23,165 nt of DNA from a virus (lineage: Duplodnaviria > Heunggongvirae > Uroviricota > Caudoviricetes), in IMG/VR virus record IMGVR_UViG_2585427789_000019, one strand, 5' to 3'. Position 1 is the stretch's first letter; each line of letters starts with the position of its first letter. The position numbers and the translations under genes were made by a program. Positions 1 through 23,165 of this stretch are shown here, piece after piece. The notes under the pieces were generated by a model, which saw only the letters and a list, made by a program, of their open reading frames with translations, did no database searches and had not been told where the DNA came from.

Positions 1-275
1 CAGCGTTTCCGCCATTTCTTCCTGAAGTGCGCTGATTCGCTCCTGTGCTTCCTGTATCTGCCGTTCGGTTTTAGCGCGAAGTTTTTCTGAGCTTTTACCG
101 AACTGCATGCGCTGCAGTTTCGCAACCAGCGCCTTCAGCCGGTTGATTTCGGAAGCATAAGCCGCCACCCGCTGTGAGAGCAGGCGGTTGTATTTCGCCA
201 TCTGGCGGATGGTGTCCTGTTGCGTCTGCAACAGTGCCCGCAGGCGGGCATTCTCATGAGCAAGTGAGGTGTCCA
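1..275 (-). CDS. tnpC: IS66-family transposase TnpC, N-terminal portion only (gene runs off window edge)
   Basis: Minus-strand translation from the ATG at 275..273 gives MDTSLAHENARLRALLQTQQDTIRQMAKYNRLLSQRVAAYASEINRLKALVAKLQRMQFGKSSEKLRAKTERQIQEAQE..., the leucine-zipper N-terminus typical of IS66 transposases; the frame is open to position 1. Confidence 0.75.
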
Positions 276-295
276 TATCCTCACTTTACAACGGG

Positions 296-643
296 TTATA
301 TGCGGATGCCAGCGCGTTCCGTTCGTTTCGGGTGCTTCCAGTCGATGCCTTCGAGAAGCATGGACAACTGAGCCGGAGTAAGGTGAACCTTTCCATCGCG
401 GGTGACCGGCCAGACGAAGCGGCCCCGCTCCAGGCGTTTGGTGAAGAGGCACAGTCCGTCACTGTCAGCCCACAGCACTTTTATCTGGTCACCCCGGCGT
501 CCGCGGAAGATGAACAGATGCCCGGAGAACGGGTCATCCTTCAGGACGTTCTGAACTTTTGAGGCCAGGCCGTTAAAGCCATTTCGCATATCGGTGATAC
601 CGGCAACCAGCCAGATACGCGAACCGGCAGGGAGAGATATCAT
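296..643 (-). CDS. tnpB: IS66-family TnpB (Orf2) accessory protein
   Basis: 115 aa (MISLPAGSRIWLVAGITDMRNGFNGLASKVQ...), the characteristic size and sequence of IS66 Orf2; its start overlaps the tnpA stop (ATGA). Confidence 0.8.
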   Translation of the reverse strand: MISLPAGSRIWLVAGITDMRNGFNGLASKVQNVLKDDPFSGHLFIFRGRRGDQIKVLWADSDGLCLFTKRLERGRFVWPVTRDGKVHLTPAQLSMLLEGIDWKHPKRTERAGIRI

Positions 644-1293
644 CAGTGGCTGCTCCCTTTCATTTCGCGGATAAGTGTCTGTAATAACGCCGGTGTCAGT
701 TCACCTTTCAGCCTGAGAGTTCCGGCCGGCAGAACCAGCTCGCAGCACAGACTGTCTGGCAGTGTATTTATCTGTTCAGGTATCTGCACTGGTGCCGGGA
801 TTTTATTATCCGGCTCCGGAGTTAACGTCACGGGAAGTAGCGATGTTTCATGTTCGCCGGGCGGTTGCAGGCCACCGTTACGCCAGAGATGCCGCCAGTT
901 AAAGAGCAGGTTATCGTTAATTCCATTCTCTCGAGCTATTTGTGCGACACAGGCACCGGGTAAAAGAGTTTGCTGAACCAGTCTCCATTTAAACTCCGGT
1001 GAAAATCGGTTCCGGCGGGGTTTCTCTGCTTTCACAGGCTGAGTCACGGTCGGGGCTGAAGGGTATCGCCCCGGGAAAAGAGCCCGGGCCAGTTGCCCGC
1101 AGGAATATTCACCGGAAAGAGGCCAGTCAGTGAATACCTGGTGAAATCGCCTCACCAGAGAAAAAATGGCGGTTTTGCTGACACCAGTCTGCGCAGAAAT
1201 GCGCGGGTACGACAGTGACTCGTCAAATCTCAGCTGTAGCACACGCAGGATCAATTCTGGATTATCTGCCAGTACCGCTTTTCGTGCATTCAT
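643..1293 (-). CDS. tnpA: IS66-family TnpA (helix-turn-helix accessory protein); true start may be internal
   Basis: 216-aa ORF with an IS3/IS66-type HTH segment (RFSPEFKWRLVQQTLLPGACVAQIARENGINDNLLFNWRHL) directly upstream of and coupled to tnpB. Confidence 0.65.
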   Translation of the reverse strand: MNARKAVLADNPELILRVLQLRFDESLSYPRISAQTGVSKTAIFSLVRRFHQVFTDWPLSGEYSCGQLARALFPGRYPSAPTVTQPVKAEKPRRNRFSPEFKWRLVQQTLLPGACVAQIARENGINDNLLFNWRHLWRNGGLQPPGEHETSLLPVTLTPEPDNKIPAPVQIPEQINTLPDSLCCELVLPAGTLRLKGELTPALLQTLIREMKGSSH

Positions 1294-1379
1294 CTTAAAT
1301 GTCCTTTTACTGCGAAAATGGACATTAGTATCGGAAACAGGAAAGGGAGGCGAAAGACGGTTTAAATGATGCGCTTACC

Positions 1380-2251
1380 ATCTTCCTGACCGCAGGCGTT
1401 GATGTTCCATCTGCTCGCTTAGCCGCCTTGGTATGTACAAACACCCATTTGTGATGCTTGCCTATTTGATCACGCAACACTTTACAGGCGGTATCGTTCA
1501 GCGCCACACCAATGGCGCGGTTTGATTTGCTCTCTTCTGGATTCACCCAGGCAACTCGTCGCTGCATGTCGATTTGTTGCCATTCCAGATTTATGATGTT
1601 CGACTTTCTCAGACCAGTTGCCAGCGCAAACTTGACGACAGATTTCAGTGGTTCGGGGCACTCATCAATAAGGCGTTTTGCTTCCTCCTTTTCCAGCCAT
1701 CTGACTCGCTTGTTTCTGACCGCTGGTATCTTGATGACAGGCGCTTTTTCCAGCCACTTCCAGTCGCGTTCTGCAGCACGGAGAATGGCCTTTCTCATGG
1801 CAAGATGCTTTGCCTTTGTCTGAGTTGGTACTGGCTTTGGTTCATAAACAGGCAGTTCTTTACCTTTCCTGATGGCGGCCTGAACTTTCTGTTTCCATAT
1901 TTCTTTCGTCTTTCTGTTATGCATTCTGCTTACAGCAGAGTAAATCTTTGCCTCCGAGATATCTTTAAGCCTTATACCCTCAAAATGTTCAAGCCAGAAC
2001 TCAATCCGGCTTTTATCTGAATCGAGAGATTTTTTATCAGCTTTTTCCTCAAGCCATCTTAGGCAGGCCTCTTCAAAAGTGACATCAGGTAAATCCCCTA
2101 GCTTTTCTACTCGCCAGAGTTCTGCTTTTCGCTTGTCGTGCAACTCCTGAGCTTGCCGCTTGTCCTTTGTGCCAAGAGATTCCTTAATTCGTTTCCCGCC
2201 CGGGAGCGAATACGAGGCATACCATATTTCATTTCTGCGGAAGAGTGACAT
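1380..2251 (-). pseudogene. intD: Lambdoid prophage tyrosine integrase, 3' end truncated by IS66-family insertion
   Basis: N-terminal about 290 codons read as a phage integrase ([46 protein letters not shown]...) including the box I arginine region ([18 protein letters not shown]). The C-terminal catalytic box II (H-x-x-R ... Y) is absent; beyond about codon 291 the frame reads IS-derived sequence. Confidence 0.8.
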
Positions 2252-2478
2252 TTTCTTTCCTCTGTTATGCCATCACCCGCGCTCACCTGGACAGTATGCA
2301 GCGGAGACTGAAGCGCCGCAATGCAGGCTTGCCGTGTTGTGAGGTAAGGAGATTTTGGCTTGGTTGGATCTTTACGTGTTGCCTGTAGGCGGCCTGTTCG
2401 TATCCAGTTGGTGGCGGTTGGTCTGGATATCTTAAGAAACTGACAGGCCTCATCGAGTGTGAGGCTGTATGATTCCAT
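2107..2478 (-). CDS. xis: Excisionase (AlpA/Xis-type HTH), 3' end overlapping the integrase start
   Basis: ATG at 2478 with upstream aggtaa; [57 protein letters not shown]... contains an excisionase-type HTH. The 123-codon length and long overlap with int are unusual, so the 3' end is uncertain. Confidence 0.55.
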
Positions 2479-2728
2479 GGTTACCTCTGCTTTTTGAACG
2501 CATGTCACGTAACTTCTTAATGTGTTCTGCCGTTTCGATCTCTTCTGCTATCCGATCTGCATCAGCTTTATTCACAGGTTCAAAGTCATGATTAAAGCGG
2601 AACATGCTGGCGATACATGTTCTGCCTTTTCGGATGTAGTGAACTTTGTTGTGGGTAGAACGCAGGATTTTGCAGGGAGTGCCGTGGTGGTCGACGTACC
2701 AGGTGTTAGGCAAAATGATTCTGAACAT
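2450..2728 (-). CDS. Hypothetical prophage early-left protein (92 aa)
   Basis: ATG at 2728 preceded by a GAGGTG Shine-Dalgarno; same orientation as the xis/int operon; no family recognised. Confidence 0.5.
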   Translation of the reverse strand: MFRIILPNTWYVDHHGTPCKILRSTHNKVHYIRKGRTCIASMFRFNHDFEPVNKADADRIAEEIETAEHIKKLRDMRSKSRGNHGIIQPHTR

Positions 2729-2775
2729 TTTTACACCTCAGTTGGACGATGTTGAAATTTGCTGCTTTGAGGCCA

Positions 2776-2994
2776 TCACAATCCCCATTGTTTGTTCTTA
2801 AGTTCGATCTCCTCCTGGCAGCTTGCACAAGTCCGACAACCCTGAACGGCCAGGCGTCTTCGTTCATCTATGGGATCGCCACACTCACAACAATGAGTGG
2901 CAGATATAACCTGGTGGTTCAGACGACGCATTTTTATTGCTGTATTGCGCTGTAATTCTTCGATTTCTGATGCTGAATCAATGATGTCTGCCAT
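2776..2994 (-). CDS. TraR/DksA-family C4 zinc-finger protein (72 aa)
   Basis: MADIIDSASEIEELQRNTAIKMRRLNHQVISATHCCECGDPIDERRRLAVQGCRTCASCQEEIE... has paired CxxC motifs and an acidic N-terminal helix as in phage TraR-like proteins. Confidence 0.6.
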   Translation of the reverse strand: MADIIDSASEIEELQRNTAIKMRRLNHQVISATHCCECGDPIDERRRLAVQGCRTCASCQEEIELKNKQWGL

Positions 2995-3043
2995 CTTCCA
3001 TTAATCCCTGAATTGTTGGTTAATACGCTTGAGGGTGAATGCG

Positions 3044-3070
3044 AATAATAAAAAAGGAGCCTGTAGCTCC
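3044..3070 (-). terminator. Candidate intrinsic terminator inside the early-left operon
   Basis: On the minus strand, stem ggagc/gctcc (3056..3070, loop ctgta) is followed by a U-run (complement of aataataaaaaa at 3044..3055), between the 71-aa ORF and the TraR-like gene. Confidence 0.4.
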
Positions 3071-3092
3071 CTGATGATTTTGCTTTTCATGT

Positions 3093-3308
3093 TCATCGCT
3101 CCTTAAAGACGCCGTTTAACATGCCGATCGCCAGGCTTAAATGAGTCGGTGTGAATCCCATCAGCGTTACCGTTTCGCGGTGCTTCTTCAGTACGCTACG
3201 GCAAATGTCATCGACGTTTTTATCCGGAAACTGCTGTCTGGCTTTTTTGATTTCAGAATTAGCCTGACGGGCTATGCTGCGAAGGGCGTTTTCCTGCTGA
3301 GGTGTCAT
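3093..3308 (-). CDS. Hypothetical protein (71 aa from ATG at 3308; the six-frame track extends it to a TTG at 3407)
   Basis: MTPQQENALRSIARQANSEIKKARQQFPDKNVDDICRSVLKKHRETVTLMGFTPTHLSLAIGMLNGVFKER; its ATG overlaps the stop of the upstream 27-codon ORF (ATGA). Confidence 0.45.
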   Translation of the reverse strand: MTPQQENALRSIARQANSEIKKARQQFPDKNVDDICRSVLKKHRETVTLMGFTPTHLSLAIGMLNGVFKER

Positions 3309-3388
3309 TGAACAAGTCCCATGTCGGCAAGCATAAGCACACAGAATATGAAGCCCGCTGCCAGAAAAATGCATTCCGTGGTTGTCAT
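3305..3388 (-). CDS. Candidate small hydrophobic peptide (27 aa), coupled between the methyltransferase remnant and the 71-aa ORF
   Basis: Minus strand atgacaaccacggaatgcatttttctggcagcgggcttcatattctgtgtgcttatgcttgccgacatgggacttgttcaatga translates to MTTTECIFLAAGFIFCVLMLADMGLVQ; ATGA overlaps at both ends. No Shine-Dalgarno of its own, so this is speculative. Confidence 0.3.
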   Translation of the reverse strand: MTTTECIFLAAGFIFCVLMLADMGLVQ

Positions 3389-3750
3389 GCAGCCTCCCGA
3401 CGGGCAAGAATCCTTGAGCCGAACGCCATCAACTCTCCACGATCAACGGTCGTAAAGTGGCAGTGTGTACGGGGGTATGGGTGCCAGATAATGAGCATCG
3501 AGCCTTTATTATTTCCACTGACGTGTTTCCCGGTGAGTGGGTTAATAAATGCCAGTCGTCCTGCCGTGATGAATCTGACCTCACTGGCGGTTTGTATCGC
3601 TTCATGAAACCATCCGACAGATGTGTCAGCAGGTAATAACATTACACATCCCACACTGCTGAATTTGTTTTCAGTGGCTGCCTTTTTCACAAAAGGGGAA
3701 ATATTGCTGTATGGTGGATTCAACCAGACATAACCAGAGGCATATCCCAT
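3385..3750 (-). CDS. Phage Dam-type N6-adenine DNA methyltransferase, N-terminally truncated remnant
   Basis: WLNPPYS (N6-adenine MTase motif IV) lies at residues 9 to 15, followed by VMLLPADTSVGWFHEAI and VRFITAGRLAFINP as in the phage Dam family; the expected N-terminal SAM-binding region is missing and there is no Shine-Dalgarno before the ATG at 3750. Confidence 0.55.
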   Translation of the reverse strand: MGYASGYVWLNPPYSNISPFVKKAATENKFSSVGCVMLLPADTSVGWFHEAIQTASEVRFITAGRLAFINPLTGKHVSGNNKGSMLIIWHPYPRTHCHFTTVDRGELMAFGSRILARREAA

Positions 3751-3997
3751 TGCTTACTGGTTGGTTACCAACTTGTACCAGAACATGCGGGCCAATGCGC
3801 TGACTGACGCGGAATTACGGCGCAAGGCTGCCGATGAACTGTCCTGTATGACCGCGCGAATTAACCGTGGTGAGGCGATACCTGAACCAGTAAAACAACT
3901 TCCTGTCATGGGCGGTAGACCTCTAAATCGTGCACAGGCTCTGGCGAAGATCGCAGAAATCAAAGCTAAGTTCGGACTGAAAGGATCAAGTGTATGA
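3751..3997 (+). pseudogene. peaD: Replication protein P, C-terminal fragment
   Basis: Frame reads ...LVTNLYQNMRANALTDAELRRKAADELSCMTARINRGEAIPEPVKQLPVMGGRPLNRAQALAKIAEIKAKFGLKGSSV, matching the C-terminus of lambda P as I recall it; no N-terminal part and no ATG start; stop overlaps the ren ATG as in lambda. Confidence 0.75.
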
Positions 3998-4296
3998 CGG
4001 GCAAAGAGGCAATTATTCATTACCTGGGGACGCATAAGAGCTTCTGTGCACAGGACGTTGCCGCGGTAACAGGTGCAACCGTAACCAGCATAAATCAGGC
4101 TGCGGCTAAAATGGCGCGGGCAGGAATCCTGGTCGTTGATGGTAAGGTCTGGCGAACGGTGTATTACCGGTTCGCTACCAGAGAAGAACGGGAAGGAAAG
4201 GTGAGCACGAATCTGATTTTTAAGGAGTGTCGCCAGAGTGCCGCGATGAAACGGGTACTGAGGGTATATAAAAGAACATCAATGGGAACACAATGA
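3994..4296 (+). CDS. renD: Ren-like protein
   Basis: MTGKEAIIHYLGTHKSFCAQDVAAVTGATVTSINQAAAKMARAGILVVDGKVWRTVYYRFATREEREGK... matches lambda Ren; ATG at 3994 overlaps the P stop (ATGA). Confidence 0.8.
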   Translation: MTGKEAIIHYLGTHKSFCAQDVAAVTGATVTSINQAAAKMARAGILVVDGKVWRTVYYRFATREEREGKVSTNLIFKECRQSAAMKRVLRVYKRTSMGTQ

Positions 4297-4363
4297 TGAA
4301 ACAGGTGAGTTGAGTTCAAACTGTAGTACAATTCTCTCCCGTTTGAACAGGAAAGAATATGCT

Positions 4364-4696
4364 ATGAACCCTTATATTTATCTTGGTGGTGCAATACTTG
4401 CAGAGGTCATTGGTACAACCTTAATGAAGTTTTCAGAAGGTTTTACACGGTTATGGCCATCTGTTGGTACAATTATTTGTTATTGTGCATCATTCTGGTT
4501 ATTAGCTCAGACGCTGGCTTATATTCCTACAGGGATTGCTTATGGTATCTGGTCAGGAGTCGGTATTGTCCTGATTAGCTTACTGTCATGGGGATTTTTC
4601 GGCCAACGGCTGGACCTGCCAGCCATTATAGGCATGATGTTGATTTGTGCCGGTGTGTTGGTTATTAATTTATTGTCACGAAGCACACCACATTAA
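4364..4696 (+). CDS. emrE: Small multidrug resistance (SMR) efflux transporter EmrE
   Basis: 110 aa from the ATG at 4364 (aggaaag Shine-Dalgarno upstream): MNPYIYLGGAILAEVIGTTLMKFSEGFTRLWPSVGTIICYCASFWLLAQTLAYIPTGIAYGIWSGVGIVLISLLSWGFFGQRLDLPAIIGMMLICAGVLVINLLSRSTPH, four TM helices including the conserved membrane Glu. Confidence 0.9.
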   Translation: MNPYIYLGGAILAEVIGTTLMKFSEGFTRLWPSVGTIICYCASFWLLAQTLAYIPTGIAYGIWSGVGIVLISLLSWGFFGQRLDLPAIIGMMLICAGVLVINLLSRSTPH

Positions 4697-4726
4697 AATA
4701 ATTTGTTTCTAAACGACTAAAATATG

Positions 4727-4769
4727 GAGGCTCTTATATTTATATGAGCCTCGTTTTATGCTTTTTGTT
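4727..4769 (+). terminator. Intrinsic terminator downstream of emrE
   Basis: Stem gaggctc (4728..4734) / gagcctc (4746..4752) with an AT loop, followed by gttttatgctttttgtt. Confidence 0.55.
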
Positions 4770-4950
4770 AATGTCTTTATTTTTTATGTATTCTTTTGTG
4801 CTTTCAAGATTATGGCGTAAGAAAATTGCAATACGATTATTGTTGTATATTCAAGATAATGTGACCTTAATTGTCTTTTTAAATAAAAATTAAACAAAAA
4901 TTATATCCCACCACTAAGGTTTATAAAAGCATACGTTAGCAGGTGTCACC

Positions 4951-6477
4951 ATGAAAAAAGCCATAGCATATATGCGATTTTCATCACCAGGTCAGATGTC
5001 TGGCGACTCATTAAACCGACAGAGAAGACTTATTGCTGAATGATTAAAGGTAAATAGTGATTATTATCTTGATACCATAACATATGAAGATTTAGGATTA
5101 AGTGCATTCAAAGGAAAGCATGCACAATCAGGAGCTTTTTCGGAATTTTTAGATGCTATAGAGCATGGTTATATATTGCCAGGAACTACATTGTTAGTTG
5201 AAAGTCTGGACAGACTTTCAAGAGAAAAAGTCGGTGAAGCGATTGAACGTCTGAAATTGATTTTGAATCACAGTATTGATGTTATAACTCTTTGCGACAA
5301 TACAGTCTATAATATTGACTCTTTGAATGAGCCATATTCATTAATAAAAGCCATACTTATAGCACAAAGGGCAAATGAAGAAAGCGAGATAAAGTCAAGT
5401 CGGGTTAAATTATCATGGAAGAAAAAACGGCAGGATGCACTGGAATCAGGTACGATTATGACGGCGTCTTGTCCGAGATGGCTCTCCTTAGATGACAAAA
5501 GAACGGCTTTTGTTCCAGACCCCGACAGGGTGAAAACTATTGAGCTAATTTTTAAACTCAGGATGGAAAGGCGCTCATTGAATGCAATAGCCAAGTATTT
5601 AAATGATCATGCTGTAAAGAATTTCTCAGGAAAAGAAAGTGCATGGGGACCTTCTGTAATTGAAAAATTATTAGCGAATAAAGCTCTGATAGGTATATGC
5701 GTACCTTCATATCGTGCAAGAGGGAAAGGGATAAGTGAAATCGCTGGCTATTATCCCAGAGTCATATCAGATGATTTGTTTTACGCTGTACAGGAAATTC
5801 GGTTGGCACCTTTTGGTATTAGCAATAGTAGCAAGAATCCTATGCTAATAAATCTACTTCGAACAGTTATGAAGTGTGAGGCTTGTGGTAATACCATGAT
5901 TGTTCATGCGGTATCTGGAAGTTTGCATGGCTATTATGTTTGTCCGATGAGAAGATTACATCGATGTGACAGGCCATCAATAAAAAGAGATTTGGTTGAT
6001 TATAATATCATTAATGAATTGCTTTTTAATTGTAGCAAAATTCAACCAGTTGAAAACAAGAAAGATGCTAATGAAACTTTAGAGTTAAAAATTATTGAGC
6101 TTCAGATGAAAATTAATAATTTAATCGTTGCATTGTCTGTCGCGCCTGAAGTTACCGCTATAGCAGAGAAAATAAGACTATTAGATAAGGAATTACGAAG
6201 GGCTTCGGTATCATTGAAAACTTTGAAGAGTAAAGGTGTAAATTCATTCAGTGATTTTTATGCTATTGACTTAACCAGTAAAAATGGACGAGAGTTATGC
6301 CGTACACTTGCCTATAAAACATTCGAAAAAATCATAATTAATACGGATAATAAAACCTGTGATATCTATTTTATGAATGGCATTGTTTTTAAACACTATC
6401 CTTTAATGAAAGTAATATCCGCCCAGCAGGCGATAAGTGCTCTCAAATATATGGTTGATGGTGAGATTTATTTCTAA
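4951..6477 (+). pseudogene. ybcK: Serine recombinase YbcK-like, interrupted by an in-frame TGA at codon 31 (5041..5043)
   Basis: ATG at 4951 with aggtg Shine-Dalgarno gives MKKAIAYMRFSSPGQMSGDSLNRQRRLIAE, then TGA, then the same frame continues LKVNSDYYLDTITYEDLGLSAFKGKHAQSGAFSEFLDAIEHGYILPGTTLLVESLDRLSREK... to 6477 (508 codons if read through). The N-terminal piece carries the resolvase-type catalytic serine motif (YMRFSS..Q). Confidence 0.75.
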
Positions 6478-6858
6478 ATAATGATCTCGGATTTTAAGTT
6501 ATGCTATGGTGATAAAGTGCAAGACAGAATTAATTATCTTTGACGAAACTTAATGGGTAATTACTTTGTTTGCTCCCACAAGCGAGTTTTGTACGGCTGT
6601 ATTGGGGTAGTAAATGAGCTATACAATCTTAATCATTTGTTAGGTGAGAACTCTTGGTCGCAGATTCAAATACTGAAAATACGTGACAAATTATTATGAG
6701 CAAAATGGTGTATGTCACGTATTTTGAATGGTAGGTTAAAAAATAACACCGACTTTCGTAGGTATTACTAATAATAAAGCAGAGTTTTTAGATAGTATCA
6801 ATGTGCTTTGTGTATATTGTGGCAAATAATTGGGTTGGGGGTACAATTGTGATTGCTT

Positions 6859-6888
6859 TTGCATGAACATTGCGCCTTTATGCATAAT
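6859..6888 (+). promoter_or_regulatory. Candidate sigma70 promoter for ybcL
   Basis: TTGCAT (6859..6864), 18-bp spacer, CATAAT (6883..6888) preceded by TG, about 55 bp upstream of the ybcL ATG; pattern match only. Confidence 0.3.
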
Positions 6889-6941
6889 GAGATAAAGGAA
6901 TATCAAATAAAATAACGATAGGTCATAACAAAGAGGTTTTT

Positions 6942-7493
6942 ATGAAAACACTTATCGTTTCAACTGTATTGGCATTCATAACATTTTCTGCGCAGGCTGC
7001 AGCATTTCAGGTCACTAGTAATGAAATAAAAACAGGAGAGCAACTTACAACGTCTCATGTCTTTTCTGGATTTGGGTGTGAAGGTGGTAATACATCGCCC
7101 TCATTAACCTGGTCTGGTGTTCCTGAAGGTACCAAAAGCTTTGCCGTAACTGTATATGATCCAGATGCACCTACAGGCAGTGGTTGGTGGCATTGGACTG
7201 TTGTTAATATTCCAGCAACAGTAACATATTTGCCCGTTGATGCAGGGAGACGTGATGGAACAAAACTGCCGACTGGTGCTGTTCAAGGCCGAAATGATTT
7301 TGGCTATGCTGGGTTTGGTGGCGCATGTCCTCCTAAAGGAGATAAACCACATCATTACCAGTTTAAAGTATGGGCTCTAAAAACTGAAAAGATTCCTGTA
7401 GATTCTAACTCCAGCGGAGCGTTAGTTGGTTATATGCTTAATGCTAATAAAATCGCAACCGCTGAGATAACACCAGTTTATGAGATAAAGTAG
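6942..7493 (+). CDS. ybcL: Secreted PEBP/RKIP-family (UPF0098) protein YbcL
   Basis: 183 aa with an N-terminal signal peptide (MKTLIVSTVLAFITFSAQA) and PEBP-like motifs (DPDAP, HHY); aagagg Shine-Dalgarno before the ATG at 6942. Confidence 0.9.
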   Translation: MKTLIVSTVLAFITFSAQAAAFQVTSNEIKTGEQLTTSHVFSGFGCEGGNTSPSLTWSGVPEGTKSFAVTVYDPDAPTGSGWWHWTVVNIPATVTYLPVDAGRRDGTKLPTGAVQGRNDFGYAGFGGACPPKGDKPHHYQFKVWALKTEKIPVDSNSSGALVGYMLNANKIATAEITPVYEIK

Positions 7494-7502
7494 GGTGAGA
7501 GT

Positions 7503-8300
7503 ATGCTGGCAAGAGGTAAGACTAACTTAAAGATCGAAGAAATACGGATGCATAAACATCATGAGATTCATAGGGTTAAGCCTCTTATGCCAGCTTTGTG
7601 TCGTATCCGTCAGGGAAAGAAAGTTATCAATTGGGAGACGCATACTTTAACTGTTGATAATAATCAAATAATATTATTTCCTTGTGGTTATGAATTTTAT
7701 ATTGAGAATTATCCTGAAGCAGGGCTTTATCTTGCAGAAATGCTTTACTTACCCATTGATTTAATTGAGAGTTTCCAAAAACTTTATACGGTAACTGATC
7801 AAATACGTAACAAAACAAGTTTCTTTTTACCTCAGAATCCTGAGTTAATATATTGTTGGGAGCAACTAAAAACATCTGTTTCCCGAGGCTTCTCAACTAA
7901 AATTCAGGAGCACTTAGCAATGGGCGTTCTACTTTCGTTAGGAGTGAATCATGTTAATCATTTACTTTTATCATATAGTAAACAATCATTGATAAGTCGT
8001 TGTTATAACCTGCTGCTATCCGAACCCGGCACAAAATGGACAGCAAACAAGGTTGCTCGATATCTCTACATTTCTGTTTCTACATTACATCGCCGTCTAG
8101 CAAGCGAGGGGGTAAGTTTCCAAAGTATACTGGACGATGTGAGGTTAAATAATGCGTTGTCTGCTATACAAACGACGGTAAAACCTATAAGCGAGATTGC
8201 CAGAGAAAATGGTTATAAGTGTCCTTCTCGTTTTACTGAAAGATTTCATAATCGTTTTAATATAACACCAAGAGAGATAAGAAAAGCTTCCAGAGAGTAA
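7503..8300 (+). CDS. ybcM: AraC/XylS-family transcriptional regulator YbcM
   Basis: 265 aa with a C-terminal AraC-type HTH ([45 protein letters not shown]...[31 protein letters not shown]). Confidence 0.85.
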
Positions 8301-8416
8301 AAGTGTTTTAAGAAGGAGCAATTCTATCGATTTTGATTTTGGGAAATCAACACGGCATAATTATGTCACCGGAGCCTGAACAACTCCGGTGACTTCTGCG
8401 CTAAACGGGGACGTTT

Positions 8417-8518
8417 ATGCGCACATACAATCCAAACTCTCTTCTCCCTTCACAGATGCAGAAATGCACCTGCAATTCTTTGCATCTAGCGTTTGACCTC
8501 TGCGGAGGTGAAGCGTGA
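8417..8518 (+). CDS. ylcH: Small nin-region protein YlcH (33 aa)
   Basis: ATG at 8417; [33 protein letters not shown]; stop overlaps the ybcN GTG start. Recognised from DLP12 gene order as I recall it. Confidence 0.55.
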
Positions 8519-8970
8519 ACCTCTCACAAGACGGCATCAAATTACATCGCGGCAACTTCACCGCTATCGGTCGGCAGATCCAGCCTTATCTGGAGGAGGG
8601 CAAATGCTTTCGCATGGTGCTTAAACCGTGGCGTGAGAAACGCAGTCTTTCCCAGAATGCACTCAGCCACATGTGGTACAGCGAAATCAGTGAATACCTC
8701 ATCAGCAGGGGTAAAACGTTCGCCACTCCAGCTTGGGTAAAAGATGCTCTCAAACACACATATCTCGGTTATGAAACCAAAGACCTGGTTGATGTCGTAA
8801 CCGGTGATATCACCACTATCCAGTCGTTACGCCATACCTCCGACCTTGATACCGGAGAGATGTATGTCTTCCTGTGTAAGGTTGAAGCCTGGGCGATGAA
8901 TATTGGCTGCCACCTGACTATTCCGCAGAGCTGCGAGTTCCAGCTGCTGCGTGATAAGCAGGAGGCGTAA
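8515..8970 (+). CDS. ybcN: YbcN (nin-region protein, reported DNA base-flipping activity)
   Basis: 151 aa from the GTG at 8515 ([61 protein letters not shown]...), in the expected position before ninE. Confidence 0.8.
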
Positions 8971-9140
8971 TGGCTACACCGCTTATTCGTGTCATGAACG
9001 GACACATCTACAAAGTACCAAATCGTCGTAAGCGTAAGCCTGAGCTGAAACCATCCGAAATACCAACACTGCTCGGATATACCGCCAGCCTGGTTGATAA
9101 AAAATGGTTGCGACTGGCAGCAAGGAGGAATCATGGCTGA
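8970..9140 (+). CDS. ninE: NinE
   Basis: 56 aa, [56 protein letters not shown]; ATG overlaps the ybcN stop. Confidence 0.85.
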   Translation: MATPLIRVMNGHIYKVPNRRKRKPELKPSEIPTLLGYTASLVDKKWLRLAARRNHG

Positions 9141-9423
9141 TTTGAGAAAAGCAGCGCGTGGTCGGGAATGCCAGGTAAGAATCCCTGGCGTATGTAATGG
9201 CAATCCTGAAACGTCTGTACTGGCACATATCCGGCTGGCTGGATTGTGCGGTACCGGTATCAAACCGCCAGACCTGATTGCCACCATTGCATGTTCTGCC
9301 TGTCACGACGAGATCGACCGTCGCACGCATTTTGTTGACGCTGGATATGCAAAAGAATGCGCGCTGGAAGGTATGGCGAGAACGCAGGTTATCTGGCTGA
9401 AAGAGGGGGTAATTAAGGCGTGA
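9133..9423 (+). CDS. ybcO: YbcO (nin-region putative nuclease, Cys/His-rich)
   Basis: 96 aa from the ATG at 9133 with ggagg Shine-Dalgarno: [67 protein letters not shown]... Confidence 0.8.
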
Positions 9424-9782
9424 ATACCTACAATATCACATTACCCTGGCCGCCGAGCAATAATCGCTATTACCGCCATAATCGCGGGCGCACGCACATC
9501 AGCGCAGAGGGGCAGGCATACCGCGAAAACGTCGCCCGAATCATTAAAAACGCAATGCTGGATATCGGCCTGGCTATGCCTGTGAAAATCCGCATTGAGT
9601 GTCACATGCCGGATCGCCGTCGCCGTGACCTGGATAATCTACAAAAGGCCGCTTTTGACGCACTCACCAAAGCAGGTTTCTGGCTGGATGATGCTCAGGT
9701 CGTTGATTACCGCGTTGTGAAGATGCCGGTTGTCAAAGGTGGAAAGCTGGAACTGACCATCACTGAACAGGGAGATGAATGA
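9420..9782 (+). CDS. rusA: Holliday-junction resolvase RusA
   Basis: 120 aa from the GTG at 9420 ([97 protein letters not shown]...) with RusA catalytic Asp residues. Confidence 0.9.
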
Positions 9783-9919
9783 TGTTTGAGTTTTATATGG
9801 CAGAACTTCTTCGCCACCGCTGGATGCGCCTGCGCTTATATCGTTTCCCCGGTTCTGTTTTGACCGATTACCGAATACTGAAGAATTACGCCAAAACACT
9901 GACAGGAGCAGGAGTATGA
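9779..9919 (+). CDS. ylcG: Small nin-region protein YlcG (46 aa)
   Basis: [46 protein letters not shown]; ATG overlaps the rusA stop. Confidence 0.55.
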
Positions 9920-10004
9920 AGTCAGAGATAACAATCAACTAATACTGTTTTGTTGATTTTTGCTTGTAATTGGCGTTCTGGTCTGAGTTTTGTGGAGTAA
10001 GTTG

Positions 10005-10388
10005 ATGCGTGATATTCAGATGGTTCTTGAGCGTTGGGGAGCGTGGGCGGCTAATAATCATGAAGATGTGACCTGGTCGTCCATTGCCGCCGGTTTTAAG
10101 GGATTAATTCCTTCAAAAGTAAAATCTCGCCCACAATGTTGTGACGATGACGCGATGATCATTTGCGGGTGCATGGCCCGTCTGAAAAAGAACAACAGCG
10201 ATTTGCATGATTTATTAGTAGATTATTATGTAGTCGGTATGACATTCATGTCACTGGCAGGTAAGCATTGCTGCTCTGATGGTTATATCGGGAAAAGGTT
10301 ACAGAAGGCTGAGGGCATAATTGAAGGGATGTTAATGGCATTAGATATCCGGTTAGAGATGGATATCGTTGTTAATAACTCTAATTAA
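10005..10388 (+). CDS. quuD: Q-like late-gene antiterminator
   Basis: 127 aa from the ATG at 10005 (ggag Shine-Dalgarno at 9994): [62 protein letters not shown]..., Cys-rich zinc-binding region typical of Q proteins, positioned after the nin region. Confidence 0.85.
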
Positions 10389-10421
10389 TATGCCAATTGT
10401 TTACTAAAAATTATTAAAAAT

Positions 10422-10450
10422 GGGGCGTTGAGACGCCCCCAAAAATAAAG
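10422..10450 (-). terminator. Intrinsic terminator for the minus strand (likely nmpC)
   Basis: Perfect 7-bp GC stem ggggcgt/acgcccc (10422..10439, loop tgag); on the minus strand it is followed by AUUUUUAAUAAUUUUU. Confidence 0.55.
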
Positions 10451-10527
10451 GGTAATATATAACAGAAGGTTTATATAGTTAGAAGCAAGGTTGTGCTTCT
10501 AAAGGAAGTGGCTTGAGGGAGCCACTT

Positions 10528-10567
10528 ATATGTTGGGGAGGCAAAGCCTCCCGCAACATATCTTTTT
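10528..10567 (+). terminator. Intrinsic terminator for the plus strand (candidate tR'-like terminator downstream of quuD)
   Basis: Long hairpin atatgttggggaggc-aaa-gcctcccgcaacatat (10528..10561) followed by cttttt. Confidence 0.55.
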
Positions 10568-10577
10568 CGTAATCAGA

Positions 10578-11660
10578 TTAGAACTGATACACCAGACCTA
10601 CAGCGACGATGTCGTCGGTATCAATACCAGCTGTTTTGGTAAACTTACTATCGTCAATTAAGTTGATTTTGTAATCAACAAAAGTGGACATGTTTTTATT
10701 AAAGTAGTAAGTAGCACCGACATCGACATACTTGACTAAGTCTCGGTCACCATGAACACCAAGGTCTTTACCTTTTGACTGAAGGTAAGCAACAGATGGT
10801 CGCAGACCGAAGTCAAACTGATATTGTGCTACTGCTTCAAAGTTTTGTGCTTTGTTTGCAATATGGTTATTACCAAAAACGGTCATATTCTGAGTTTCAG
10901 AATATGTGGTAGCCAGATAGATATTGTTCGCATCATATTTCAGGCCTGCAGCCCATACTTCCGCATTTTTGCCGGAGGCATTGAATTTGCTCTTACCATA
11001 GGCGACCTGACCGTCAGTGCGATCTGATTTAGCATAGGTTGCACCCACGCCGAATCCTTCATACTCATAAGTAGTGGAGAAACCGAAACCATCACCATTG
11101 GCTTCAGTTACGTCAGTGCGGTCATTTTTACCCTGATACTGAGCAGCAAAGTTCAGGCCATCGACCAGACCAAAGAAGTCGTTGTTACGATAGGTTGCAA
11201 CACCAGTGGTGCGACCAGTCATGAACACATCTGTTTGGGTCCAGGTATCGCCACCGAATTCTGGCAGAACGTCAGTCCACGCACCGATGTCGTATGCTAC
11301 ACCGTAGTTACGGCCGTAATCGATTGAGCCGTAGTCACCGAATTTCAGGCCTGCAAATGCAAGACGGGTTTTGTCTTTGGAGGAACCTTGAGATTCAGCG
11401 CGGTTGCCTTTGAATTCATATTCCCACTGACCGAAACCAGTCAGTTGATCGTTGATTTGGGTTTCACCTTTGAAGCCAAGACGGGCATAAGTAGTATCAC
11501 CATCATCTGCATCGTTAGAGGAAAAGTAGTGCTTGGCATTAACTTTCCCGTACAGATCCAGCTTGTTACTGTCTTTATTATAAATTTCAGCTGCCTGAGC
11601 AGACATCGCCATCAGTACTGATGCAGCTACAGCAGAAATTGCCACTGTTAATTTTTTCAT
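10578..11660 (-). CDS. nmpC: OmpC/OmpF-family outer-membrane porin (NmpC-type), apparently intact
   Basis: 360 aa with signal peptide ([23 protein letters not shown]), porin beta-strand pattern and C-terminal ...VGLVYQF; uninterrupted reading frame. Confidence 0.9.
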
Positions 11661-12248
11661 CGTGAGCCCTTTTTTTTGAACTATTATTAAAAAATGATGT
11701 CACTGCGCGATAAATATTCATCTAATCAATGTGATTATTTCAAGATGTAAGTTTTAGTTTCTCATTTAATTTGTGAAGTAGATCTCTATTTTTATCTGAA
11801 CTTTTTCTATCGAAACCTATTTATGGCTCTTATTTGAACAAAAATAAACCTATTAGCTAATTTATATTAATGGCTGTTATTTATGGGGGTTCTATAATTC
11901 AGTGGTTTAATTTAAATCAACCAAAAATAACGCCGGAAATTATTTATTGGTTATTTGTTGAGGTTTTCTTATATATTTGTGGTGGTGTTTTGAACACTCG
12001 GTAGCATTCTCATAAATATCATTCAGTGGTTTACGTACGTAAAAAATTGGTTATGCTGTTAAGAGTGGTTACTTCGTCACACAGCTTAAACCCGCCGTCG
12101 AGCTGGTTTTTCCATTTTTTGAGTCTCGATATTAGCTGATAACTCAATACCTGAGTTATTCACTGACTCCGAGTCTGTTACGTTTCTGCTTTTTTGCGAT
12201 ACGTTGTATTCCCTCAATTTACACCCGCTTTGTCTGCGAGGTGGGGTT

Positions 12249-12464
12249 ATGAAATCCATGGATAAGTTAACAACGGGTGTCGCCTATGGCACCTCAGCAG
12301 GTAGTGCCGGTTACTGGTTTTTACAGCTGCTCGATAAAGTCACGCCCTCACAGTGGGCAGCAATAGGTGTGCTGGGTAGCCTGGTATTTGGCCTGCTGAC
12401 GTACCTGACAAACCTTTATTTCAAGATTAAAGAAGATAAGCGCAAGGCTGCGAGAGGTGAATAA
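12249..12464 (+). CDS. essD: Holin (phage 21 S-type pinholin)
   Basis: 71 aa from the ATG at 12249: [71 protein letters not shown]; two TM segments, immediately before the endolysin. Confidence 0.85.
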
Positions 12465-21740: not shown

Positions 21741-22415
21741 AAAAAGGTGAGCTGTATATGCAACGGAGGAAGAAAACTCGTTGCTGGAAGCCTGGAAAAA
21801 GTATCGGGTGCTGCTAAACCGTGTGGACACTTCCGTAGCACCAGATATCGAGTGGCTTATTCAACCATAATAAACAGTATGTATATCATAGGTTATTAAT
21901 TGTGAGTTTTTTCGGTGTGTTATTTGTTTGTTTGATGTTATGCTTTTGCGCCCCAAAAGGTTGTTTAGATGTATTTTATCAATTGATTTTCAATGTCGTT
22001 TAATAAAGAAAAATTAAGCAAGCTGGATGTTGGTTTTTTGTTAATTGAATGGTTCTAATAATGTTTTTTTACTGTTGTTGAATGTGACTTGATAAGAAAT
22101 GCAAGTAAAAATGATACTCTTTTTATTTTAAATTCAAACGGTTGACATATATATAGCAAGAGGTTTCAGGTGCGTTGTAGTGAGTTTATGTTAATAAAAA
22201 GTATAGTAAGCGTTGAAAAATGTAACTTTGAAATACGTTAGAATAAAAAACAATATACATATAATAATTTAATCTTAAATGAAATTTATTAAAATTTGCA
22301 AACTATAATTTTGTGTATAAAAATATAAATGCACATCATCCTGATTATGATTGTGTATTTAATTGGTTGTTATTTGACTGCTATCAACTTGTTTTAATTT
22401 TATGATAGGTGCAAG

Positions 22416-23165
22416 ATGGATTATGTTTGCTCCGTAGTTTTCATCTGTCAATCATTTGATTTAATTATAAACAGGAGAGTTATCTCGTTCAAAAAAAATT
22501 CATTGTTTATTGTAAGCGACAAAATTAGAAGGGAGTTACCAGTATGCCCCTCTAAACTAAGAATTGTTGATATAGATAAGAAAACATGTTTATCCTTTTT
22601 TATCGACGTGAATAATGAGTTGCCTGGCAAATTTACTCTTGATAAGAATGGCTATATTGCTGAAGAGGAACCTCCATTATCGCTTGTTTTTTCTCTGTTT
22701 GAAGGGATTAAAATAGCAGACTCACACTCCCTTTGGTTAAAAGAAAGACTATGTATATCCTTACTTGCCATGTTCAAAAAACGCGAAAGTGTAAATTCAT
22801 TTATACTAACAAATATAAATACATTTACCTGTAAAATTACTGGAATAATCAGTTTTAATATTGAGCGGCAATGGCATTTAAAAGATATTGCGGAATTGAT
22901 TTATACGAGTGAAAGTTTAATAAAAAAAAGATTAAGGGATGAAGGAACGTCATTTACTGAAATATTGAGAGATACTAGGATGAGGTATGCAAAAAAACTC
23001 ATAACTTCAAACTCTTATTCTATCAATGTCGTAGCCCAGAAATGTGGCTATAACAGTACTTCATATTTCATATGTGCATTTAAAGATTATTATGGTGTCA
23101 CGCCATCTCATTATTTTGAGAAAATAATCGGCGTCACAGATGGAATAAACAAAACAATTGACTGA
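22416..23165 (+). CDS. appY: AraC-family transcriptional activator AppY
   Basis: 249 aa, [56 protein letters not shown]... with C-terminal AraC-type HTH ([37 protein letters not shown]...[27 protein letters not shown]); stop is at the window end. Confidence 0.9.

Follow-up and report, generated by a model that had tools for sequence, protein, structure and literature searches.

Probable composite origin of the emrE-ybcK-ybcL-ybcM island of a DLP12-type Escherichia coli prophage: three modules in a variable lambdoid cargo slot

The 23,165-nt stretch of viral DNA held in IMG/VR as IMGVR_UViG_2585427789_000019 (hereafter the window) carries, between the phage gene ren and the nin region, an AT-rich block at 4297–8330; this is the emrE-ybcK-ybcL-ybcM island of accessory genes already known from the DLP12-type prophage of E. 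coli. The original prediction regarded this block as one mobile cassette with a recombinase gene at its edge. We conclude instead, with a probability of about 0.8, that it is a composite moron island, in which three separately acquired modules, namely emrE, ylcJ-ybcK and ybcL-ybcM, occupy a variable slot of lambdoid phages. Window 1379–23165 matches, at 100% identity, the DLP12-type lambdoid prophage linked to argU in E. coli AST19, EC0026B, MIN14 and the B-lineage strain REL606 (for the latter, a rounded figure), and gene coordinates were taken from the RefSeq annotation of the identical AST19 locus. Comparison with related phages sets the extent of the block at ~4265–4297 to 8330, and the predicted identities of its four genes (efflux pump, serine recombinase, PEBP-family protein and AraC regulator) agree with Pfam. 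The block and its immediate flanks consist of the following features:

3994–4296, plus strand: ren, the conserved backbone gene nearest the slot on its left (PHROG Ren-like exclusion protein).
4297–4690, plus strand: emrE module; the coding sequence (4364–4696) specifies an SMR efflux pump (Pfam PF00893 Multi_Drug_Res, 3e-34; PHROG moron category).
4691–4704, plus strand: left junction of the ylcJ-ybcK insertion, CATTAAAATAATTT, including the emrE stop codon (4694–4696).
4726–4752, plus strand: terminator-like hairpin followed by a U-rich tract, directly after emrE and within the inserted element (RNA fold -14 kcal/mol, z = -3.15).
4744–4893, plus strand: ylcJ, a 49-residue small protein that is part of the ybcK element (from annotation).
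4861–4889, plus strand: sigma-70 promoter reported for ybcK, GTGACC-17-TAAAAA (PMC3946193).
4951–6477, plus strand: ybcK, large serine recombinase (Pfam Resolvase, Recombinase and Zn_ribbon_recom; 'internal stop' in RefSeq).
6478–6550, plus strand: tail of the ybcK element, common to O157-type and hydrolase-type elements.
6551–6786, plus strand: 236-bp segment present only in full-block prophages, standing where the ybcK element would otherwise have its right end and right repeat.
6787–8330, plus strand: ybcL-ybcM module, with the promoter GTGGCA-17-TACAAT at 6819–6847 (PMC3946193).
6942–7493, plus strand: ybcL, periplasmic protein of the PEBP/RKIP family (Pfam PBP, 3e-42).
7503–8300, plus strand: ybcM, AraC regulator (Pfam HTH_18/AraC).
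8331–8393, plus strand: right slot boundary, on which all compared phages converge, with a promoter-like TTGATT-17-CATAAT at 8333–8361 and an inverted repeat at 8365–8393.
8417–8518, plus strand: ylcH, with which the conserved nin-region genes right of the slot begin.
8515–8970, plus strand: ybcN, NinB/Orf family, nin-region gene right of the slot.

Alignment of the junctions in E. coli and phage genomes showed a backbone common to all relatives up to the last ~10 codons of ren (~4265) and again from 8331 onward, where homology resumes at the -35 hexamer of the TTGATT-17-CATAAT element upstream of ylcH/ybcN. Between the same ren and ybcN flanks we found seven cargo states other than that of the window, and the ren-ylcH/ybcN interval is a recurrent cargo site. 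The compared genomes carry in this slot:

O55:H7 prophage: an open reading frame (ORF) of 93 residues.
PhiR5_1: Rha and small ORFs.
PhiR30_1: an acyltransferase and an outer-membrane lipoprotein.
PhiR26_1: PD-lambda-1 and Rha.
Perceval, 4A7 and many prophages: emrE-ylcJ-ybcK and an oppositely oriented alpha/beta hydrolase gene.
O157 prophage at icd: emrE-ybcK and a 280-bp remnant.
Strains Rb-50 and F467: emrE and the hydrolase gene only.
PhiR68_2, PhiR34_1 and PhiR70_1, complete phage genomes of 44–50 kb: the same four-gene block, 99.7–99.9% identical.

The predicted status of the four genes as accessory cargo between ren and the nin region is supported by phages with the same backbone that lack them or hold other genes, and the comparison with lambdoid phages devoid of the block, proposed along with it, gave different cargo in the relatives. 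Our literature search found no paper naming the ren|ninB slot as a hotspot.

Furthermore, the modules are found apart from one another, emrE being associated with three different right-hand partners. The pair emrE-ybcK occurs without ybcL-ybcM (O157 type and Perceval type), and emrE occurs with the hydrolase gene and without ybcK. In ~2800 E. coli genomes emrE-ybcL-ybcM, lacking ybcK, lies between fliE and yedK at ~90% identity, within what is itself a decayed DLP12-like prophage, with an integrase fragment by fliE, an nmpC-type porin gene after ybcM and phage backbone up to the start of ybcN. Relative to this copy, window 4704–6786 (ylcJ and ybcK, 99.8% identical to K-12) is a clean indel in the emrE-ybcL spacer, and the dN/dS ratio of emrE between the two versions is 0.02. 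In strain HH45 the fliE-locus flanks are 98–99% identical to the window version. The fliE-yedK copy was seen variously interrupted by IS200, IS1 or IS2 (loci L003, L007, L008 and L028). As a separate observation, emrE of the HH45 fliE locus is 99.3% identical to the DLP12 copy, compared with ~91% in most strains, a pattern that suggests gene conversion between the two copies. The third module has a life of its own as well: Yersinia ruckeri and Cedecea have ybcL-ybcM, with an identical 9-nt gap, as an ordinary pair of chromosomal genes, and in Salmonella the pair sits in a mobile region; neither emrE nor ybcK was found near any of these pairs.

The notion that YbcK, encoded at an edge, inserted the whole of 4300–8300 as one cassette between ren and the nin region draws on the presence of a recombinase gene inside an AT-rich block of non-phage genes. 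It is hard to sustain, and we consider it very improbable. The gene ybcK is internal to the block, as the second of its four genes, and not at the edge as had been supposed; every pairwise combination of the three modules exists separately; and the repeats that do exist bound only ylcJ-ybcK. The search for direct or inverted repeats around 4300–8300 that had been put forward as a check yielded none above chance between the ends of the whole block (0.49–0.97 of shuffles reach the observed score). Because the modules occur separately and the block ends without repeats, ybcK is neither an edge gene nor the vehicle of the block, and arrival as one mobile cassette was not borne out.

The composition of the block, on the other hand, is as foreign as had been claimed. 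Its GC content is 0.363 (4297–8330), against 0.481 in 1379–4296 and 0.483 in 8331–10388, and is the lowest among all 4034-bp stretches of the window. The GC content at third codon positions (GC3) is 0.255–0.351 in the five block genes and 0.347–0.605 in 21 other prophage genes (one-sided p ~3e-5, exact rank calculation on those values); among the latter only borD/iss (0.347), itself a known moron, falls below 0.41. The condition under which the claim would have failed, a GC content and codon usage equal to those of the flanks, is therefore not the case. Both spacers singled out beforehand are AT-rich (4697–4950, GC 0.272; 6478–6941, GC 0.330), but the first is not empty, as it holds ylcJ, the terminator-like hairpin and the reported sigma-70 promoter. 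Nor is the block the sole AT-rich island of the window, since appY has a GC content of 0.25–0.32 and the nmpC upstream region one of 0.32.

Could such DNA be a piece of host chromosome, captured by aberrant prophage excision in the manner of specialised transduction? Chromosomal pairs resembling ybcL-ybcM in other Enterobacterales would speak for it. Their GC content is 0.48–0.57, compared with 0.38 for ybcL-ybcM in the window, and the block as a whole lies well under both E. coli and the orthologous pairs. Moreover, the block occupies a central position in the early-right operon, at a distance from the attachment (att) ends, and the E. coli copy at the fliE locus is itself a prophage remnant, judging by its integrase fragment, nmpC-type porin gene and ylcH-region backbone. 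We give host capture even slightly less credence than the single cassette.

The origin of the middle module is best approached in its hydrolase-type relatives. In these prophages a precise insertion of 2073 bp, comprising ylcJ-ybcK, runs from the emrE stop codon to 290 bp past ybcK and is bounded by a 38-nt imperfect direct repeat (31/38 identity) with the perfect 15-nt core CATTAAAAATAATTT; the corresponding CATTAAAATAATTT of the window is a copy of this core shorter by one A. The alignment score of the repeat is 46, compared with a maximum of 26 in 300 shuffles, and the eight filled loci that have both ends all measure 2073 bp from core to core. From the repeat we predicted the junction that precise excision should leave and searched for it in genomes and contigs. 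It was found uninterrupted in two complete E. coli genomes, in the context ren-emrE-hydrolase-ylcH-ybcN, and in four IMG/VR contigs. Joining the left junction's left arm to the core and the right junction's right arm gives the sequence of these empty sites, with one G/T difference only. Read by eye, the core lies within a short AT-only near-palindrome of ~10 nt per arm, and in both deduced sites the best dyad centre lies within the core; the candidate attP is TTCATTAAGTATCTGAGCACCGAGAGGCTGGTCACGCCCCCATTAAAAATAATTTATTTTTAAACGACTAAAATATGGAGGTTCGTATATTTGTA and the candidate attB is CGGTGTGTTGGTTATTAATTTATTTTCACGAAGCACACCACATTAAAAATAATTTCTTTTGAATCGAGTGAAATAGGTTAGCCCGCATAAGTGCG. Intact YbcK contains the catalytic YxRxSxxxQ motif and Resolvase, Recombinase and zinc-ribbon domains (PHROG 'integrase', 4e-120), and intact ybcK alleles show a dN/dS of 0.075, with 40 synonymous and 12 non-synonymous differences. 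Going by its sequence, then, the unit has the anatomy of a small site-specific integrative element.

Two other candidate features were discarded. A remnant of an emrE pseudogene right of the element was rejected, since only the last ~5 codons are duplicated and no further coding similarity follows. The motif GTCACG-N(4-20)-TTAAAA, of which the window (4675 and 6714) and hydrolase-type loci each have two copies and empty sites one, was dropped as att arms, as the true empty sites carry TTCACG; its spacing also varies (6, 12 or 16 nt), and the right site of the window does not significantly resemble the left site or the hydrolase-type right site.

Relatives of YbcK are not confined to E. coli. 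Full-length homologues of 40–61% identity occur across Enterobacterales, and we inspected the genomic context of eight loci, including the window. Half of them (the window, Atlantibacter L016, Pantoea L022 and the metagenome contig L023) lie in the early-right/nin region of a lambdoid prophage; three (Yersinia L018, Erwinia L020 and Ewingella L024) follow directly on tail-fibre and tail-fibre-assembly genes, at or near a prophage end; and one (Kluyvera L025) has no clearly phage-like neighbours. The genes are usually, though not in every locus, lower in GC than their neighbours, and DNA similarity within the family is limited to the gene itself. The YbcK family is hence a recurrent inhabitant of prophage accessory slots. 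In L023, the YbcK homologue (59% identity) is found together with KGG and DinI genes between 181-nt direct repeats (6671–6851 and 9651–9831 of that contig), the repeat being the 5' end of the neighbouring DUF1367 gene, whose first 60 residues are 97% identical.

As to how the unit came to its place, we incline, by a small measure, to entry by YbcK-catalysed site-specific recombination; that ylcJ-ybcK is or was a minimal self-integrating element of ~2.07 kb, with YbcK targeting a ~40–50-bp site over the emrE stop codon, has about even prospects. The competing account, possible though in our view somewhat doubtful, is that lambdoid module shuffling placed ylcJ-ybcK in one illegitimate or short-homology event; YbcK would not be its integrase but a resolvase, an invertase or an accessory function for phage or host, and the 38-nt repeat would be a by-product. 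Only one event can be inferred, which this account accommodates, and a 15-nt identical core with extended similarity is longer than most att cores of large serine recombinases. YbcK relatives occupy several accessory prophage positions without evident repeats, and the 181-nt duplication around the L023 relative is of a kind that homologous or unequal exchange typically leaves; junctions at short homologies are, besides, documented between lambdoid prophages (PMC9928086). Against shuffling stand the exactness of the indel to the base, the complete recombinase with catalytic motif and purifying selection that the unit encodes, and a core in a near-palindrome centred in ~40–50 bp of arm similarity, which is the size expected of a serine-integrase site. 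The position of ybcK beside emrE in every E. coli locus opened (1427 genomes hold ybcK, not all of which were surveyed) also argues against it. For the role of an invertase, inverted repeats around the hydrolase gene were not convincing apart from the AT-rich core.

Whatever its past, the ylcJ-ybcK element of the window is a fixed, dead remnant. It is immobile here because its right end and right repeat are lost and ybcK has a premature stop, TGG to TGA at codon 31 (5041–5043; W31*), in addition to G108S, which makes the gene a pseudogene. Codon 31 is TGG in the K-12-type, O157-type, hydrolase-type and phage alleles. W31* cuts the catalytic YxRxSxxxQ motif (residues 7–15) off from the remaining protein, and the longest ybcK ORF of the window (5176–6477, 433 residues) starts at profile position 64 of the Resolvase domain; one polypeptide with the full set of large-serine-recombinase parts is encoded by the K-12, O157 and phage alleles, but not by the window copy. 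Element homology with the O157 and hydrolase types stops 66–75 nt past the ybcK stop codon, the tails of the hydrolase and window types sharing no homology beyond +80 nt; then follow the 236-bp segment and the ybcLM promoter. Whereas hydrolase-type copies possess both the att-like repeat and matching empty sites, the window copy has the left core only. The phenotypes of ybcK over-expression and deletion reported for BL21(DE3) (PMC7181518) would be touched by W31* if B strains share it, the match of the window to the B-lineage strain REL606 being 100% as a rounded figure.

Several observations count against this nested, layered interpretation. In the window copy the right-hand repeat is not significant (0.89 of shuffles reach its score), and an exact empty site for the ybcLM context was not found, the best candidate, the HH45 fliE-locus copy, being off by a 34–38-nt indel. 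Recent mobility was not seen: the nearest filled and empty alleles are 1.3–4% apart in their flanks, and because they are distinct lineages only one old insertion event can be inferred for the ybcK unit, which lies beside emrE in every E. coli locus opened. A search of IMG/VR and JGI metagenome contigs for the attP junction of an excised or circular form found none, and the distant YbcK homologues have no clear flanking repeats save a weak 17-nt pair (L016/L023) and the L023 duplication. The ybcLM orthologues met elsewhere, with a GC content of 48–57%, point to no donor of the AT-rich DNA. Finally, the regulatory statements made below rest on K-12 and not on the strain of the window.

With respect to function, EmrE is the classic SMR exporter of multiple drugs and quaternary cations. 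All four genes are under purifying selection where they could be compared. In the active prophage Perceval, emrE is reported to be an inducible moron (PMC9928086), and the 49-residue YlcJ protein has been experimentally detected in K-12 (PMC6001520). Sigma-70 promoters were assigned in K-12 to the sequences at 4861–4889 and 6819–6847 by genomic SELEX (systematic evolution of ligands by exponential enrichment), and both spacers are bound by H-NS (PMC3946193); both reported promoter sequences are present in the window. YbcM of K-12 binds upstream of ybcLM and at a dozen sites besides, and when it is lost the survival of peroxide falls 8-fold (PMC8464067), while according to a meeting report YbcM shifts cells from motility to biofilm (PMC9966839). 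H-NS-bound, AT-rich promoter spacers would fit the xenogeneic silencing of foreign AT-rich DNA, and we infer that the block genes serve lysogenic conversion, expressed from their own promoters, and are not phage functions.

Based on these comparisons we propose the following assembly. A first unit, emrE, encoding the small multidrug/quaternary-cation pump, would have occupied the variable ren-ylcH/ybcN slot of the argU-integrated prophage. The second, the ~2-kb ylcJ-ybcK, would have inserted exactly at the emrE stop codon, and the third, the ybcL-ybcM operon for a PEBP protein and an AraC-type autoregulator, would have been captured with its own promoter from a pair that is chromosomal in other Enterobacterales. 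The most economical order might begin with emrE, accompanied by the hydrolase gene, in the slot, followed by the insertion of ylcJ-ybcK where emrE stops; the 236-bp segment and ybcLM would then have replaced the element's right end and the hydrolase gene or, in the O157 type, a deletion would have removed them, the order of these last steps being an inference. Homologous recombination in the conserved flanks, that is, in ren and in the promoter/hairpin before ylcH, and within emrE has likely moved whole cargo sets from phage to phage.

Some further details of the block deserve mention. The 67-nt ren-emrE gap contains an inverted repeat (4314–4348; GTTCAAAC...GTTTGAAC) directly upstream of the emrE start codon, which is kept in the fliE-locus copy and has no Rfam match. 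No riboswitch was detected upstream of emrE in an Rfam scan of 3900–8700 (E <= 1), which returned only a spurious match to a long non-coding RNA, and a consensus promoter scan was not enriched overall over shuffles (17 found, 15.4 expected). Inside 6551–6786 lies a perfect 13-nt palindrome (6676–6688 / 6713–6725; AAAATACGTGACA-N24-TGTCACGTATTTT; RNA fold z = -2.9), missing from the fliE-locus copy, which retains the ybcLM promoter; the palindrome could be an operator or a transcript hairpin. The promoter-like element and inverted repeat of the right boundary were annotated long ago in phage 82 (X92588). Positions 1–49 of that nin-region record match 8284–8332, and the record begins within sequence of the 3' end of ybcM, with 96% identity over the whole match; classical phage 82 probably carries ybcM upstream of orf33, and perhaps the whole block.

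The surrounding prophage is itself eroded. Its segment exo-bet-gam-cI-cro-cII-O is entirely deleted when compared with the intact relative PhiR68_2, and the prophage is therefore defective. A truncated dam-type methyltransferase gene on the minus strand abuts a truncated replication gene P at 3385–3997. Window 1–1378 is the end of IS679, an IS66-family element with 99–100% identical copies on many E. coli chromosomes and plasmids; here it is inserted in intD, the DLP12 integrase gene, an insertion absent from AST19 and REL606. Low-GC stretches extend over 9750–12250, around quuD and an oppositely oriented, intact nmpC/ompC-type porin gene (10578–11660), with a GC content of ~0.32 upstream of the latter (11500–12250). 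At the far end, appY (22416–23165) with its upstream region (21750–23165; GC 0.25–0.32) is more AT-rich than the block and gives this prophage a second cargo gene for an AraC-family regulator. Outside the island the features are:

From 1379, where homology begins and the gene is cut: intD (RefSeq annotation, AST19).
3385–3753, minus strand: dam fragment (RefSeq annotation, AST19).
3752–3997: P fragment, adjoining the dam fragment.
Right of ybcN, in order: ninE, ybcO, rusA, ylcG, quuD, the porin gene and the lysis genes.

As sequence, the island with its genes is textbook E. coli K-12/B material, and slot-level comparison and a mosaic reading are ordinary lambdoid biology; the main value of our analysis lies in the corrected reading, according to which exchange of modules in a lambdoid cargo slot built the island up in layers and no recombinase delivered it as a cassette. 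The nested ylcJ-ybcK insertion, the deduced att sites and the existing empty sites appear to be undescribed in the literature searched, in which no paper contained both 'ybcK' and 'serine recombinase'. If the self-integrating element is real, it would be a mobile element nested in a moron nested in a prophage, giving the long-uncharacterised ybcK of K-12 a function together with defined attP and attB sites, and its relatives of 40–61% identity would form a family of recombinase elements colonising accessory slots of lambdoid prophages. The evidence for nesting lies largely outside the window's own sequence, where the element is degenerate. With the candidate attB and attP, a direct test of what this orphan K-12 recombinase does becomes feasible, and genome engineering may gain a compact serine integrase.

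In its domains and catalytic serine motif YbcK resembles the large serine recombinases of phiC31, Bxb1 and SPbeta (SprA) and the transposon recombinases TnpX and TndX, and in hydrolase-type relatives of the window its unit shares with such elements the precise insertion, the common core and the existing empty site. It differs in that the unit measures ~2.07 kb, with a recombinase gene and a 49-residue ORF only, and resides inside a prophage that has a tyrosine integrase; furthermore, one target is known, no recombination directionality factor is evident, and the activity of YbcK is a prediction from its sequence. Solved structures related to YbcK were not found (phmmer, E <= 1e-3). The slot is also reminiscent of prophage defence and anti-defence hotspots (P2/P4; PD-lambda), as the homologous slot of one relative carries PD-lambda-1 and can therefore hold defence genes. 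In contrast, the cargo of the block is an efflux pump, a periplasmic protein and a regulator, and EmrE, YlcJ, YbcK, YbcL, YbcM and YlcH gave no PADLOC match (E <= 0.01). The nearest known system is DLP12 of K-12 and B itself (renD-emrE-ylcJ-ybcK-ybcL-ybcM-ylcH-ybcN; argU, intD), with which the window shares locus, gene order and sequence; this copy departs from it by W31* in ybcK, where the K-12-type allele is intact, by the interruption of intD by IS679 and by an intact porin gene. Finally, the island is akin to other lambdoid morons, such as bor, lom, nmpC and the sitABCD of Perceval, which are likewise AT-rich, dispensable for phage growth and present or absent between otherwise collinear phages, and which have their own promoters, as is predicted for the block genes. 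Compared with these, the island of the window would be made up of three stacked units, of which one is a nested recombinase insertion.

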